64,000 bases of DNA from Minisyncoccota bacterium (GCA_018062065.1 JAGOSX010000001.1:31070-95069); one strand, 5' to 3'. Positions 49,077 to 64,000 are shown, numbered from the stretch's first letter. The notes: generated by a model from the letters alone, not told the origin. Made by a program: numbers and translations.

Positions 49077-49859
49077 TTAATTTAGCCCTAAACTCTTTAG
49101 GAATATTTCTAATTCTTTGCCTTCGATTTTACGGAGAGAGTTCGCGTGAAGTTTTTTGAGTTCGATATTCATTACTCGAATTCTTTTAAGTTCTAATACT
49201 TCTGCAAATAAAGCGTCACTCATACGGCGGATTTGATGCTTCTTGCCTTCGGTTAGAATTATATTAAAGGTATAGTCGTTAATTACTTTAACTTTGCAAG
49301 GTTTAGTTTTATAATCTTTGATTCCTTTAGCTCCTTTGAGTATTACTCCGGCTTCCATTTTCTCTTTGAAATTAGAACGTAATTTATTTTTAGTTTTGAC
49401 TACGTATTCTTTTTCGTGAAAATATTCTGGATTAAGTAATTTATCAGTTATGCGTCCGTCGTTTGTAAGTATTATTAATCCGTGAGAATCTTTATCGAGT
49501 CTGCCGATAGGGAAGACTTTATCTTCTATGCCTGCTTTCTTTAAAGAATTTTTAATATCCAAATCTTCTTCGTTATCTTTATTAGTTAAAATCCCGCGAG
49601 CTTTATTATAAGCAAAATACACATAATTCTTTTTTTGCCCTTTAAGTTCTACTTTATCTTTCGCTTCGACTTTATCTCCGAGTTTAGCTACTTTGCCGTT
49701 AATAAAAACTTTACGTTCTGTAATCAGAATATCAGCCTCACGACGAGATGCGAGGTTCTTTTGAGCTAAGTATTTATTTATACGAATAGGGTATTCCATT
49801 ATTTTATTTGTGCTTTCGGTAGGATATCTTTCCCTACGGGAACAGTATACCTTTTTCAT
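49077..49859 (-). CDS. Pseudouridine synthase, RsuA/RluB family (S4 domain + catalytic domain)
   Basis: The S4 domain is RINKYLAQKNLASRREADILI and the catalytic Asp motif is GRLDKDSHGLIILTNDG. The functional start is probably the ATG at 49799 (MEYPIRINKY...). The first 20 codons (MKKVYCSRRERYPTESTNKI) are encoded by the duplicated tRNA-flank repeat. Confidence 0.8.
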   Translation of the reverse strand: MKKVYCSRRERYPTESTNKIMEYPIRINKYLAQKNLASRREADILITERKVFINGKVAKLGDKVEAKDKVELKGQKKNYVYFAYNKARGILTNKDNEEDLDIKNSLKKAGIEDKVFPIGRLDKDSHGLIILTNDGRITDKLLNPEYFHEKEYVVKTKNKLRSNFKEKMEAGVILKGAKGIKDYKTKPCKVKVINDYTFNIILTEGKKHQIRRMSDALFAEVLELKRIRVMNIELKKLHANSLRKIEGKELEIFLKSLGLN

Positions 49860-49963
49860 TTTTTATAAATTAAATTTCTAAAAAATAAGGAAAAGCTTTT
49901 TGATTCCTACCCAGAAGCAAAGTCATTTGCTTCTTCTCAGTCTCAAATAGTTCCGCTTATTTG

Positions 49964-50035
49964 TGCTTTCGGTAGGAATCGAACCTACATCACAACTTCC
50001 GCAAAGTTGCGTCCTATCCATTGAACGACGAAAGC
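49964..50035 (-). tRNA. tRNA-Arg (anticodon GCG)
   Basis: I folded the reverse complement by hand. The acceptor stem is gctttcg/cgaaagc, the D-arm is gttcaatggataggac, the anticodon stem is caact/agttg with loop uuGCGga, and the T-arm is gtaggttcgattcctac. The backbone is nearly identical to the tRNA-Arg(TCT) at 63790. Confidence 0.8.
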
Positions 50036-50093
50036 AAATTGCTTAAAAACTAAGCTTTAATATTTTTACCATATTTTGAGAGAAAAATCTAGT

Positions 50094-50558
50094 TTAATAT
50101 CCGATAAGCTCCATAATCTCTTCAACTGGGCTTTCTTTCATTTCTTCTATAGTAATATTTTCACTGTCGAGAATTTCACGAATTTTATCTGCTACGTTTT
50201 GATTTATAGCTACTGGAATAATAGGGAGGAAGAAGCGATCGGTTTTGATAAATAGAGTTGGGTTCTTTTCTAAATTAATATAATAAGCTTTTATGCTTTT
50301 ATAAGGGTATAGGCGGTCTTTGATAGCTAAGCCTTTCGCATTTAATTCGTAGTATAGAGTTTCAGGTTCTTCGTTCGCAAAGTGACCCATAAGTATTCCT
50401 CCTAAAAATAATAAAATAGCAAAGAAATAATTTTTAAATATAATTGCAGTCACTACTCCAACTAAAACAATGATTCCTAAAGCCCAAAACCAATCCACGC
50501 TCTTTTTAGAGTGTGAATATGCAGGCACTGCCCAAGATAGTTTATTATTAGTTTCCAC
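50094..50558 (-). CDS. Membrane hypothetical protein
   Basis: 154 aa with two N-terminal TM helices, followed by the terminator hairpin aatccgta...tacggatt at ~50575-50612. Confidence 0.4.
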   Translation of the reverse strand: METNNKLSWAVPAYSHSKKSVDWFWALGIIVLVGVVTAIIFKNYFFAILLFLGGILMGHFANEEPETLYYELNAKGLAIKDRLYPYKSIKAYYINLEKNPTLFIKTDRFFLPIIPVAINQNVADKIREILDSENITIEEMKESPVEEIMELIGY

Positions 50559-50618
50559 TTATCTATTATAACAAAATCCGTACAGTAGTCACAACTACTA
50601 TACGGATTTTTGGTTAAT

Positions 50619-51062
50619 TTAATTTTTCAAATCGTTTTCTTCCCCAGCGTCTTCCCAGTTTTTGGCAATTTCTAAGGCAAGATTTCTCCTTGACTCTTTA
50701 AGTTTGCCGAGATAATCCTCAGTTTCTTTTATTTCTTTTTTTATGCTCTCTTGTTCTCTTAAGAGATAGTTTTTTATTTCTTCCGTCGTTGGTTTTTTGA
50801 TAAACCAAAGAGGGTTTAACAAGTTTCCAATAATAATAAAAAAGAAAACGGAACCCACGAAAACAAGTAAGATGAGATCGTTCCTTTGTTTATCTGTAAA
50901 ATTTGGAGTTGTTTGATTTAGCGTAAGCCAAATAAAACCAACCAAAATGCTGATTAATAAAGCTAAAATAATTAAACGACCGATTATGGCCATTTTCTTC
51001 GCTCTATAAGAGGCAAGGATTGCACCTTTACGGGTGCTTTCTGAAATTGTGAATGTGCTCAT
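50619..51062 (-). CDS. Membrane hypothetical protein with a C-terminal coiled-coil
   Basis: 147 aa with two TM helices. Confidence 0.4.
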   Translation of the reverse strand: MSTFTISESTRKGAILASYRAKKMAIIGRLIILALLISILVGFIWLTLNQTTPNFTDKQRNDLILLVFVGSVFFFIIIGNLLNPLWFIKKPTTEEIKNYLLREQESIKKEIKETEDYLGKLKESRRNLALEIAKNWEDAGEENDLKN

Positions 51063-51156
51063 TTTTTTTTAAAAATTTGATTTAAGGTAATAATACTAAA
51101 AATATGAGTTTAGTCAATACCAAATAAAAAAGCCCTATTTGTAGGGCTTTTTAAAT

Positions 51157-63132: not shown

Positions 63133-63471
63133 ATGAATTTAGATTTTAAAAATTTAGCTTTTTTCCAAAATAAAAAAACTTTTCAAAAAGAGTATTTTCA
63201 AATAAATCCAGACAAATATTGGAACCTCTCATTAGTTTTGTTTTTTATTATTGTTTTATTAGGGTCAGGTTTTGGGTATTATAATTTTGCTAAATTAAAT
63301 AAAGCCTTAAATACTTATACTAATAACAATAAAGAAGAAAATAATCAAATTTTTGATGTTAAACAAAAAAATGAAATCAATGATTTGCTAAATTATTTTA
63401 AAAATAGAGAAGATCAAACTTCTTCGTTAATTAACGATAAAAAATCTTTAGTTATTGACCCTTCGCTTTAA
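63133..63471 (+). CDS. Small membrane-anchored hypothetical protein downstream of pilO (PilP-like position)
   Basis: 112 aa with one TM and no motif recognised. Confidence 0.3.
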   Translation: MNLDFKNLAFFQNKKTFQKEYFQINPDKYWNLSLVLFFIIVLLGSGFGYYNFAKLNKALNTYTNNNKEENNQIFDVKQKNEINDLLNYFKNREDQTSSLINDKKSLVIDPSL

Positions 63472-63586
63472 AAATGTTAATCTAAAAAGAGTTTTTGGAT
63501 GAATTAGATATTTGGGTGGTTAGCTGTTTTGGTAGATAACAGCGAGAAGTTTGAAAGTAAGTTGTTTTTGGATGAATTAAATATTT

Positions 63587-63659
63587 GGGCGGTTAGCTCA
63601 GTTGGTAGAGCAGCGCTTTTACACAGCGAAGGTCACAGGTTCGAATCCTGTATCGCCCA
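63587..63659 (+). tRNA. tRNA-Val (anticodon TAC)
   Basis: Folded by hand. The acceptor stem is gggcggt/atcgccc, the D-arm is tagctcagttggtagagc, the anticodon loop is uuUACac, and the T-arm is acaggttcgaatcctgt. A degenerate tandem copy of its 5' half plus upstream flank lies at ~63493-63550. Confidence 0.85.
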
Positions 63660-63661
63660 CA

Positions 63662-63758
63662 AATCCTTAAGTCCCTTTTTGGGATAGGATTCGAAAGTCG
63701 GAGCACGACGGTGCGAGACGGGGTCGCGTAAATTTTCAGCAGAAAATTATACGTGACC
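63662..63758 (+). repeat. 97-bp GC-enriched insert bounded by 19-bp direct repeats of the tRNA-Val 3' end (gaatcctgtatcgcccaca at 63643-63661 and 63759-63777)
   Basis: The direct repeat is exact, 19/19. The insert contains gtcggagcacgacggtgcgagacggggtcgcg. Confidence 0.45.
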
Positions 63759-63789
63759 GAATCCTGTATCGCCCACAGTGTTAATATTT

Positions 63790-63861
63790 GCCTTCGTAGT
63801 TCAATGGATAGAACAGAGCTCTTCTAAGGCTTTGATGTAGGTTCGATTCCTACCGAAGGCA
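63790..63861 (+). tRNA. tRNA-Arg (anticodon TCT)
   Basis: Folded by hand. The acceptor stem is gccttcg/cgaaggc, the D-arm is gttcaatggatagaac, the anticodon loop is cuUCUaa, and the T-arm is gtaggttcgattcctac. Confidence 0.85.
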
Positions 63862-64000
63862 CAAATAAGCGAAGCTATTTGAGACTGAGAAGAAGCAAAT
63901 AATTTTGCTTCTGTGTAGGAATCGAAAAGCTTTTCCTTATTTTTATAATAAAAATGGAAAAGGTATACTGTTCCCGTAGGGAAAGATATCCTACCGAAGG
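63862..64000 (+). repeat. Right copy of an inverted duplication. The tRNA-Arg downstream flank (~140 bp, including a partial tRNA 3'-end repeat cctaccgaagg) is ~90% identical to the reverse complement of 49803-49963
   Basis: Aligned by eye. Example: ggtatactgttcccgtagggaaagatatcctaccgaagg (63961-64000) against rc(49815-49853). The window ends inside the repeat. Confidence 0.6.

Follow-up and report, generated by a model that had tools for sequence, protein, structure and literature searches.

The described systems closest to the sequences considered here are the islands and prophages integrated at tRNA genes, and with them the CIMEs, att-flanked integrase-less elements that are mobilised in trans (reviewed in PMC5704250). 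Three other comparisons suggest themselves: with folded recombination sites, namely integron attC and the attP(+) site of phage CTX; with IS200/IS605 ends, PATEs and REP/REPIN sequences, which are small, hairpin-rich and non-coding and are served by a transposase in trans; and with the group I introns of Patescibacteria tRNA genes, ribozymes of ∼200–400 nt that lie in the anticodon loop (bioRxiv 10.1101/2025.07.03.662931). Two modules in a stretch of DNA from a Minisyncoccota bacterium (64 000 nucleotides; hereafter ‘the window’) share features with each of these and coincide with none. At a probability somewhat above even (about 0.55), the two modules are copies of one small, non-coding, palindrome-rich family of insertion elements found 3′ of tRNA genes in Paceibacterota.

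Each module is a tRNA-Arg gene followed by a flank of ∼150 nt. The left host gene is tRNA-Arg(GCG) at 49963–50035 on the minus strand (ARAGORN; Rfam 62 bits), the right one tRNA-Arg(UCU) at 63790–63862 on the plus strand (ARAGORN; Rfam). A first reading made from the sequence alone had noticed that the flanks are near-identical in inverted orientation, and the alignment bears this out, at 87–98% over ∼230 bp in total: arms of 159 nt (49881–50039/63786–63944) are 87% complementary, and a 12-nt indel parts them from arms of 49 nt (49815–49863/63950–63998) at 98%. Two flank probes of 24–30 nt each match solely the two flanks, with 0 matches in shuffled sequence. That reading had allowed that the repeat might be an assembly collapse; the right copy is not a collapsed repeat, because the two element copies are 92% identical and thus differ at 8% of positions. 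The left junction is found unchanged in the NCBI metagenome contig L008; for the right copy, which the window end cuts at 64000, no independent contig gives such support.

On sequence comparison, the flank is a non-coding, hairpin-rich insertion that copies the tRNA end, ∼130–160 bp long in general and ∼153 bp in the window; no conserved ORF lies inside it. The parts follow one order in each copy: X1, a short trailer hairpin, P0, X′, P2, an invariant block with the hairpin P3, and X2. The left copy (49804–49962, minus strand; covariance model R1 matches 49809–49939 at 142.7 bits) thus holds the trailer, hairpins, a three-way junction and a second copy of the tRNA 3′ end. X1, at 49957–49977, is the first of two 21-nt direct repeats (100% identical; repeat family D3); its sequence, TCCTACCGAAAGCACAAATAA, joins the final 15 nt of the tRNA to 6 nt of the trailer. 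X2, the second, lies at 49804–49824 (family D3) and is the 3′ strand of the closing stem P1, the 5′ strand being X′ (GGTAGGAATCAA, 49900–49911). Both X′ and the flank segment ...ggtaggaatcgaa... give the T-loop and the 3′ strand of the T-stem in inverted complement, and X′ varies together with the host T-stem in L011, L015 and L016. P0 (AGAAGCAAA/TTTGCTTCT; RNAalifold) is at 49913–49934, and 7 of its 9 pairs change on both sides; P2, at 49850–49895, varies in length and sequence, with 11 of 14 pairs changing on both sides. Comparison of copies delimits the invariant block of 30 nt, GGTATACTGTTCCCGTAGGGAAAGATATCC, to 49822–49851, including P3 (49830–49842); its final 26 nt are identical in 9 of 9 copies, drawn from six genomes or metagenomes. 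All these left-hand parts are on the minus strand. The right copy (63863–64000, plus strand; R1 match 63886–64000, 121.4 bits) is cut by the window end inside X2. Its parts, on the plus strand, are X1 at 63848–63868, P0 at 63891–63912, X′ at 63915–63926, P2 at 63930–63963, the invariant block at 63962–63991 and X2, the same direct repeat truncated, at 63989–64000. The tRNA 3′-end repeats that had been noticed in the flanks are therefore real, down to the exact direct repeat, and the suggestion that they resemble att sites fits: they do mark an insertion.

The evidence for insertion comes from relatives that lack the flank. In at least eight related genomes the tRNA-Arg gene directly adjoins the start codon of a pseudouridine-synthase gene, so that the flank in the window must be an insertion. 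At the left site, tRNA-Arg(GCG) ends ...CCTACCGAAAGCAC and the RluF ATG follows at once in L017, L019, L020 and L022, where RluF is 84–87% identical to that of the window, and in L024–L026, where it is 64–65% identical. At the right site, in L028 and L029 (PilM 81% identical), tRNA-Arg(UCU) ends ...GAAGGCAC, followed by ATT and then the ATG of a PseudoU_synth_2 gene. In two further loci the intergenic gap is too short for the element, and model R1 has no match in any empty-site locus. The tRNA-Arg(GCG) of the window is identical to the empty-site tRNA of L019, and its tRNA-Arg(UCU) to the insertion-free tRNA of L028. In the filled site of the window 10 extra nt separate X2 from the ATG, which means that deletion between the repeats could not have turned the filled state into the abutting one. 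The same comparison bears out the start of the RluF-type gene (49077–49799, minus strand; Pfam, orthologue N-termini and empty sites), which had been suspected to begin at 49799 and not 20 codons upstream: orthologues begin MEYPIR or MDFPIR, the 20-codon extension occurs in none of them, the ATG equivalent to 49799 is the one that abuts the tRNA in relatives, and ORF extensions into the flank are spurious. These comparisons show a polymorphism at tRNA 3′ ends, where the element is inserted in some genomes and not in others.

Exact 21–23-mers of the invariant block led to element copies in three genomes and two metagenome contigs, scoring 113–143 bits with model R1. These diverged copies belong to four further Paceibacterota assemblies, and the family occurs at four or more tRNA species. 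One copy follows tRNA-Arg(UCU) in L012; two tandem units with a 157-nt period follow the same tRNA in L013, from whose sequence tandem duplication of the element can evidently occur; copies follow tRNA-Arg(GCG) in L014 and L016 and tRNA-Lys(UUU) in L015; and the L011 copy lies downstream of tRNA-Trp(CCA) at a distance of 650 nt, its X2 being the same as the 3′ end of that tRNA. The segments derived from tRNA agree with the local tRNA in all copies: P1 reads GTAGG/CCTAC, GCAGG/CCTGC, GGGGG/CCCCC or GGAGG/CCTCC, tracking the local T-stem, and the acceptor part of X2 tracks the local acceptor stem (GAAAGC, GAAGGC, GAGGGC, TGAGGGC). The direct repeat of the tRNA 3′ segment, beside an intact tRNA, measures 21, 15, 15 and 18 nt (one mismatch), and has shrunk to 9 and 7 nt in two older copies. 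With 2–3 copies per 64 kb, copy number seems low and the element is not apparently genome-wide. Elements with a different core in the same layout are also seen, behind tRNA-Val in the window and near a tRNA-Ser end in L016.

Identity between the right copy and the orthologues in L012 and L013 is only 77%, against 92% with the left copy, and this points to recent copying inside the window genome. One way to account for such closeness, together with the ∼230 bp of inverted identity, is a recent inverted duplication of the whole tRNA-Arg module, whose repeats would invert the 13.8-kb segment between them (nrdAB, fur, photolyase and pilMNO); homologous recombination over such repeats is physically possible. 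The sequence-only reading took this course, but we consider it very improbable. The two genes agree at 59 of 73 positions, with identical T-arms and most of the differences in the anticodon arm, and they are paralogues of long standing whose positions and divergent orientation are conserved: the same arrangement is found in MAG_BO118 and L016, whose proteins are 43–57% identical to those of the window, and the positions and orientations are kept in L017, L019 and L028 as well, flank or not. The inverted orientation of the element pair thus follows from the ancient divergence of its hosts, and ‘tRNA plus flank’ was not duplicated as a unit. Nor does synteny support inversion. Gene order and orientation between the tRNA-Arg genes are conserved in distant relatives; the segment has the same orientation in the window, L008, MAG_BO118, L016, L017, L019 and L028, and no relative or alternative contig examined shows the opposite one. 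The longest perfectly identical stretch between the arms is only ∼41 bp, and the left junction recurs in the independent contig. Strain variants L021, L023 and L027 do break at tRNA 3′ ends, but as different rearrangements: homology to L023 (99.3% identical) reaches precisely to 63777, where the tRNA-Val repeat ends, and homology to L027 precisely to the RluF ATG. On these breakpoints, tRNA 3′ ends act as recombination junctions in the window genome.

Structure prediction has X′ pairing with X2, which folds the right two-thirds of the element into a three-way junction, as single-stranded DNA or as RNA. This is the predicted minimum-energy fold of the isolated element, and its closing stem P1 has the same sequence as the host T-stem. 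Across copies 96% of cells are paired and 21 of 35 pairs show changes on both sides, values reached by 0 of 500 shuffles; slid controls pair at 40–56%. The compensatory changes, exceeding both kinds of control, are what one expects of a conserved structured RNA in general. The kind of pairing is not: of 277 cells, 265 are Watson–Crick, 1 is G-U, 4 are A-C and 7 are other mismatches, so that wobble tolerance on the transcribed strand is wanting, although this deficit, like the inference of gain and loss, rests on just nine copies. To judge by its nearly exclusive use of Watson–Crick pairs, the pairing looks DNA-like.

A second perspective supposes that the element acts as RNA, a cis-acting structured domain co-transcribed with the tRNA; this is possible, though on the unlikely side. 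X′ would pair either with X1 or with X2, and the domain would switch folding or processing, or act as a 3′ handle resembling a tRNA; it could control tRNA maturation or the downstream gene, with the invariant junction binding a ligand or protein. Besides the strong covariation and the conserved junction strands around a variable P2, the predicted minimum-energy fold of tRNA plus element speaks for it: X1 pairs with X′ and the 5′ acceptor strand with X2, so a competing fold exists, and in L015 the element is joined to the trailer and 3′ end of the tRNA by a perfect 16-bp helix. Element and tRNA always share a strand; T-loop position 59 covaries with X′ (TTCGATT/AATCGAA in Arg- and Lys-linked copies, TTCGAAT/ATTCGAA in the Val- and Ser-linked elements); and the L011 junction stands alone between promoter-like and terminator-like flanks. 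Against this, one G-U pair stands beside 11 disruptive mismatches; the element is dispensable, being absent from these tRNAs in most relatives; the alternative ‘giant T-loop’ tRNA fold lacks conservation, since L015 and L016 show decay in the acceptor portion of X2; and downstream genes vary from copy to copy. In a comparison with Rfam 15 that included self-cleaving ribozyme, riboswitch, tmRNA, Y-RNA-like and T-box families, only tRNAs passed; all other matches fell below 22 bits (E > 0.3), and the element matched no family even at E = 10. No hammerhead core (CUGANGA...GAAA) was seen on inspection by eye.

If the insertion-element reading is followed instead, the likenesses to mobile DNA fall into place unevenly. 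As with tRNA-integrated islands, prophages and CIMEs, insertion is at the tRNA 3′ end and leaves the tRNA intact; the far end is marked by a direct copy, displaced there, of the 3′ strand of T-stem and acceptor; units accrete in tandem (L013); and the element would be non-autonomous. Unlike them it is 10–100 times smaller (∼150 bp) and without genes, one interior serves different tRNAs while the internal inverted target copy varies with the host tRNA, and there is no known integrase partner: Pfam finds no tyrosine or serine integrase in or beside the element in the window. It might still be supposed that the modules are scars of phage- or ICE-like elements with a tyrosine integrase, mostly deleted to attL, ends of ∼130 bp and attR, and a direct repeat that starts in the T-stem and stops shortly after the discriminator base is indeed the classic signature of tRNA integration. 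The right part in L011, 650 bp from tRNA-Trp with an ORF of 147 aa between, resembles a larger cargo-bearing insert, and T4SS-like genes occur at 5.4–10.4 kb of the window. Deletions that arose independently, however, would not have preserved one ∼130-nt interior, helices included, across six genomes or metagenomes and four or more tRNAs; X′ tracks each host tRNA, as no fixed attP arm would; no integrase is nearby; and searches of phage, plasmid and viral collections gave no match to the element. We regard such scars as improbable.

The likeness of the putative insertion element to attC and CTX attP(+) lies in architecture. All have a direct core, cargo, an inverse core, a variable palindromic spacer and a direct core, within about 60–150 nt overall; a target-like duplex is restored when the inverse copy pairs with the direct one, here X′:X2 as P1; and the centre, here P2, varies in length and sequence yet stays paired, nearly all by Watson–Crick pairs. 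The differences are that the element targets a tRNA gene, not dif or attI, has an invariant 30-nt block and a three-way junction in its centre, and would use single-stranded DNA only by inference; R-box (GTTRRRY/RYYYAAC), attI, IntI and cassette array are lacking. An integron cassette was considered and rejected: the aligned copies contain no RYYYAAC ... GTTRRRY boxes, they stand singly or doubly behind tRNAs, and no integrase accompanies them. With IS200/IS605 ends, PATEs and REP/REPIN the element shares small size, hairpins, lack of coding capacity and the need for an enzyme in trans. In IS608, too, a short internal ‘guide’ pairs both with the target and with one end of the element itself, and that end resembles the target although true target-site duplication is absent. 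The element departs from this group in the length of the guide-like X′ (12–29 nt versus 4 nt), in its target, the tRNA 3′ end, and in a copy number that seems low; no Y1 (HUH) transposase or RAYT was found within the 64-kb window. MITEs have as their hallmark terminal inverted repeats at both ends and a short (2–10 bp) target-site duplication; the ends here, AAATAAGCGG.../...GATATCCTAC, are not inverted repeats, and the flanking repeat, of 15–21 nt, is the tRNA end. The group I introns are likewise selfish or structured tRNA-associated inserts in the same phylum; the element differs in standing 3′ of a complete tRNA, in being far smaller and in matching no Rfam intron.

From these comparisons we infer a possible course of events. 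A non-autonomous element would enter the tRNA gene by recombination at its 3′ end, the enzyme being encoded elsewhere; the X′:X2 stem and invariant block would form a folded recombination site imitating the target, by analogy with CTX attP(+), integron attC or the guide-plus-hairpin ends of IS200/IS605; spread between two tRNA-Arg genes with identical T-arms would occur by copying or gene conversion; and the element would be carried in the tRNA transcript, leaving an intact tRNA upstream. Several observations count against mobility. No recombinase, transposase or integrase was found by Pfam in the element or among window ORFs of ≥110 aa, and no circular or excised form was seen. A classical integrase would work poorly on a DNA circle of ∼150 bp. 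In elements bound by recombinases both ends are usually conserved; strong conservation here is confined to the right part, and an invariant 30-nt block beside variable, compensating hairpins would also fit a functional RNA. That distant genomes carry it at the same pair of tRNA-Arg sites could mean ancient inheritance followed by losses instead of repeated gain.

A bolder proposal, which we hold to be doubtful, sees in the family either a class of ‘target-matched’ miniature mobile elements not described before or a switch in tRNA maturation. As a mobile class, X′, the guide complementary to T-loop, T-stem and acceptor 3′ strand, would with X2 set both the insertion site and the element boundary, so that one conserved core might be retargeted to Arg-GCG, Arg-UCU, Lys-UUU and Trp-CCA tRNAs. 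The differently cored relatives at tRNA-Val and tRNA-Ser suggest a general Patescibacteria mechanism using folded strands.

The element is a recurring unannotated feature of Patescibacteria genomes, which breaks assemblies at tRNA genes, makes spurious ORF starts (RluF, for example) and marks hot spots of strain-level rearrangement. As the tRNA-Arg genes of relatives abut pseudouridine-synthase start codons, insertion probably also alters the expression of those genes. Should it be mobile, it would rank with the smallest known site-specific insertion elements, and it apparently specifies its target by carrying that sequence in both direct and inverted form; this would interest those who seek to understand guide-based DNA insertion and perhaps to borrow it. 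An RNA role would mean that organisms whose RNA-processing machinery is minimal have a new way of linking tRNA maturation to a structured domain.

The host genes themselves deserve a remark. ARAGORN and Rfam agree on both anticodons, as first read. The GCG anticodon had been called uncommon among bacteria; this holds for bacteria generally but not for the clade, where 9 of 9 related loci examined (L014, L016, L017, L019, L020, L022, L024–L026) have tRNA-Arg(GCG). Such a tRNA is already known from TadA-less Mollicutes (PMC3711424), where, as here, a G34 tRNA-Arg(GCG) replaces the usual A34/I34 tRNA-Arg(ACG) in a reduced genome, although the window bacterium belongs to another phylum. No deaminase motif occurs within the 64-kb window, which, as part of a genome, bears only weakly on tadA. 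Among 490 Arg codons counted, CGA (49) and CGG (18) are still in use, and a second CGN-reading tRNA is therefore needed.

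The two tRNA-Arg genes of the window, tRNA-Arg(GCG) at 49963-50035 (-) and tRNA-Arg(TCT) at 63790-63862 (+), were reported by both ARAGORN and Rfam, and the repeat finder returned their inverted flanks as two pairs of arms: 49881-50039 with 63786-63944 (159 nt, 87% identity) and 49815-49863 with 63950-63998 (49 nt, 98%). Pairwise alignment of the flanks places a single 12-nt indel between the two blocks; probes derived from the flanks match only the left and right copies in the window (0 of 100 shuffles match). The degenerate tRNA 3'-end copies noticed earlier from the sequence are also present, and on the left the copy is exact: the tRNA's 3'-terminal 15 nt and a 6-nt trailer (TCCTACCGAAAGCACAAATAA, 21 nt in all) recur 153 nt downstream, while the right copy begins a direct repeat of the same type that is cut by the window end. 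Assembly collapse had been named as a possible source of the pattern. The repeats are confirmed and the left junction is identical, base for base, in an NCBI metagenome contig (L008; L numbers denote contigs or loci of other genomes or metagenomes); therefore, the inverted flanks are real and not a collapsed repeat. Logan contigs of the window's species terminate within the tRNAs, and contig look-ups with the window's RluF protein returned no record for either candidate start (49799 or 49859). Samples containing the species include SRR34217545, SRR11088468 and the metagenome assembly GCA_020047435.1. Window GC is ~30%, and gene content includes DUF5652, RuvX and PilM; the homologues bear names from Candidatus Paceibacterota / Nomurabacteria, in the candidate phyla radiation.

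The sequence-only reading took these arms for a duplicated module that can mediate inversion of the 13.8-kb segment between them. The arms exist, but gene order is conserved. One contig of MAG_BO118 carries tRNA-Arg(UCU) (-) near 130.4 kb and tRNA-Arg(GCG) (+) near 139.8 kb, with the element described below behind each, and in a tblastn comparison its genes match those of the window in order and relative orientation (PilO-N-M, tRNA-binding protein, RuvX, DUF5652, tRNA-Ser, ..., a 154-aa protein, tRNA-Arg(GCG)); L016, L017 and L019 agree with this order, again by tblastn. The divergent tRNA-Arg arrangement is therefore old. No inverted state of the segment was seen among these four relatives, and a role as inversion substrate is very improbable. 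The arms are read instead as two copies of a small insertion element at tRNA 3' ends, at 49804-49962 (-) and 63863-64000 (+).

Strain rearrangements do occur here, and their breakpoints coincide exactly with tRNA 3' ends or with the ATG of the pseudouridine-synthase gene RluF (49077-49799, -). L023 is 99.3% identical to window 62802-63777, homology ending precisely where the tRNA-Val 3' repeat ends; past that point (L023 1003-1850) it carries a terminator, an HTH_23 gene and, on the opposite strand, a different tRNA-Arg(UCU). L027 (1279-2091) matches RluF at 95% identity, departs from the window precisely at the ATG and has a TrmB-like gene; L021 (1-341) joins a truncated atpA to ...CCGAAAGCAC-ATG. 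The predicted 13.8-kb inversion is not among these three.

Orthologous loci, fetched via neighbouring proteins, supply empty sites for both tRNAs. At the GCG site of L017, L019, L020 and L022 (RluF 84-87% identical), tRNA-Arg(GCG) ends ...CCTACCGAAAGCAC, followed directly by the A of the RluF ATG; L024, L025 and L026 (64-65% identical) show the same abutment of tRNA and start codon, and at two more GCG-site loci the intergenic gap, 143-174 bp, leaves insufficient room for the element. At the UCU site of L028 and L029 (PilM 81% identical), a tRNA identical to that of the window ends ...GAAGGCAC, and only ATT separates it from the ATG of a second pseudouridine synthase. A covariance model search did not find the element at the compared empty-site loci of either tRNA-Arg. 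In the filled GCG site of the window, 10 additional nt separate the second repeat from the RluF ATG; therefore, the abutting state cannot have arisen from it by deletion between the repeats. On this comparison the abutting state is judged ancestral and the ~153-bp unit gained. The right copy probably precedes the same second pseudouridine-synthase gene just past 64000. In relatives L017, L019, L024 and L026 (RluF) and L028 and L029 (second synthase), the synthase start codon lies 0-3 nt past tRNA-Arg; such spacing implies that tRNA and mRNA would be co-transcribed, and that tRNA 3' processing would release near-leaderless mRNAs.

Protein coding was rejected for the element: a 30-nt block is invariant, without synonymous variation, no start codon is kept across copies, and no conserved ORF was found among them. 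A 20-codon extension of RluF into the flank is spurious; orthologous RluF proteins lack it, and 49799 is the supported start.

A search with an exact 23-mer or 21-mer of the most conserved block matched three GTDB genomes and two metagenome contigs. Copies lie behind tRNA-Arg(UCU) in L012 and L013, behind tRNA-Arg(GCG) in L014 and L016 (which has another upstream of RluF), behind tRNA-Lys(UUU) in L015, and in L011 650 nt downstream of tRNA-Trp(CCA), with a 147-aa ORF between; the window's own tRNA-Lys is without an element of the family. In L013, a Nomurabacteria MAG, 4606-4920 holds a tandem pair of identical units repeating every 157 nt, which shows that element and tRNA-end copy can be amplified as one unit. 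The junction ...GATATCCTACCGAAAGCAC|AAATAAGCGG... would point to a circle of ~153 nt or to a tandem array. Because the window copies are 92% identical to one another, whereas identity of the right copy to its L012 and L013 orthologues is just 77% (86% to the GCG-linked L014 copy), both window insertions are, by sequence identity, taken to be recent and closely related. The T-arms of the two window tRNA-Arg genes are identical across 36 nt; the likeliest route of spread between them would be copying or conversion.

All aligned copies share one order: the tRNA's own 3' end (X1); an A-rich trailer, which pairs with a downstream complement; hairpin P0; X' (GTAGGAATCGAA), an inverted complement to T-loop and T-stem 3' strand; hairpin P2, variable in length and sequence; the invariant block GGTATACTGTTCCCGTAGGGAAAGATATCC with hairpin P3 inside it; and X2, in which the T-stem 3' strand, and usually the acceptor 3' strand too, is copied directly. 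In the predicted fold, X' pairs with X2 to form stem P1, which closes a three-way junction. P1 tracks the local tRNA in each copy: GTAGG/CCTAC in the window, L012, L013 and L014, GCAGG/CCTGC in L016, GGGGG/CCCCC in L015 behind tRNA-Lys, and GGAGG/CCTCC in L011 at tRNA-Trp. X2 also mirrors the local acceptor stem, including an A/G difference between the window copies, and in L012, L013, L015 and L016 X' is prolonged beyond P0 by 13-16 nt that are complementary to the trailer and the acceptor 3' strand. A retroviral-style primer-binding site was considered and rejected: X' is complementary to the trailer, not to CCA, and complementarity extends past A58.

The preferred interpretation, given a probability of roughly 0.55, is a non-autonomous mobile element with a folded, target-mimicking site, whose insertion chemistry and enzyme we infer. 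The tRNA-end copies could also be scars of larger elements, a doubtful reading: no match was found in the phage, plasmid and viral collections, and no recombinase among the window's ORFs of 110 aa or more.

The helices themselves bear on a further possibility, that the insert is a cis-acting RNA. Across P0-P3, 96% of cells are paired and 21 of 35 pairs have changed on both sides, values reached by none of 500 shuffles; slid controls paired at 40-56%. The pairs comprise 265 Watson-Crick, 1 G-U, 4 A-C and 7 other. Structured RNAs usually tolerate G-U. Its near-absence fits DNA-level pairing, as in folded single strands or cruciforms, and also fits palindromes kept perfect by template switching; hence, the covariation shows that pairing is maintained and does not demonstrate RNA function. 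Rfam returned tRNAs only, both for the window at the gathering threshold and for the two flanks and one region of L016 at E <= 10 or E <= 1; by-eye comparison with hammerhead, twister, pistol and hatchet cores fitted none; consensus scans of the left copy for promoter or terminator gave nothing. A cis-acting RNA is considered unlikely, though it deserves more weight than scars. The minimum-energy fold predicted for tRNA plus element pairs X1 with X' and the tRNA 5' acceptor strand with X2, and in L015 the X1:X' helix is predicted to dominate. On paper, then, a fold competing with the three-way junction exists; P1 is conserved and the competing fold is not, because the acceptor part of X2 is decayed or lost in L015 and L016. 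This minimum-energy fold corresponds to a T-loop intron model, with the tRNA 5' strand closing on X2, which was rejected as a conserved state on the same ground.

Other inserts have the same layout. Behind tRNA-Val(UAC) lies a different insert of ~117 nt (63661-63777, +): a hairpin is followed by the T-loop and T-stem copied in inverted orientation, AGGATTCGAA (63687-63696), by a GC-rich core and finally by the tRNA-Val 3' end, repeated directly over 20 nt (63758-63777). Strain L023 has this insert; L012, L013 and L028 lack it, and in these tRNA-Arg(UCU) starts within 17-34 nt of tRNA-Val. A third variant (L016 8573-8722, +; weak model match, 29.6 bits) terminates in a perfect copy of the tRNA-Ser(UGA) 3' end, CTCACCGCCTCCGC, although that tRNA is 5 kb distant; this end could pair, acceptor-stem-like, with the 5' portion of the variant, GCGGAGCG. 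A 5'-side counterpart of the 3' repeats consists of partial tRNA 5'-end copies with ~25 nt of upstream sequence (window 63491-63536 and ~30677-30701; L011 ~4190-4240; L028 ~7545-7580), which precede tRNA-Val, tRNA-Lys and, in L011, tRNA-Trp by 67-110 nt; every one of them has its D-arm region converted into a longer perfect hairpin.

The anticodon that had been called unusual is indeed GCG, but all nine related loci have it in this place too. TadA-less Mollicutes use tRNA-Arg(GCG) together with tRNA-Arg(UCG) (PMC3711424). Long ORFs of the window contain CGT 121, CGC 60, CGA 49, CGG 18, AGA 214 and AGG 28; since CGA and CGG both occur, the genome must encode a further CGN-reading tRNA outside the window.

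A free-standing LAGLIDADG_3 ORF (59058-59753, -) ends 10 nt before tRNA-Ser(UGA) (58962-59047), outside any intron or rRNA gene, and has no counterpart beside tRNA-Ser in L016, L017, L019 or L028. The ribonucleotide reductase small subunit NrdB (52920-54320, -) has an N-terminal ATP-cone, and the NrdA gene encodes all-alpha and barrel domains only; the allosteric domain is therefore on the unusual subunit. A PemK/MazF-type toxin gene (33821-34213, +) lies between uvrB and a UVR-domain ORF. The genes yidC, rnpA, dnaA and dnaN (12172-16498) mark a probable replication origin near 13.6-13.8 kb, and just upstream of them (5384-10362) are T4SS-like genes: PrgI, a TraG/VirB4-type ATPase and a T4SS pilin.
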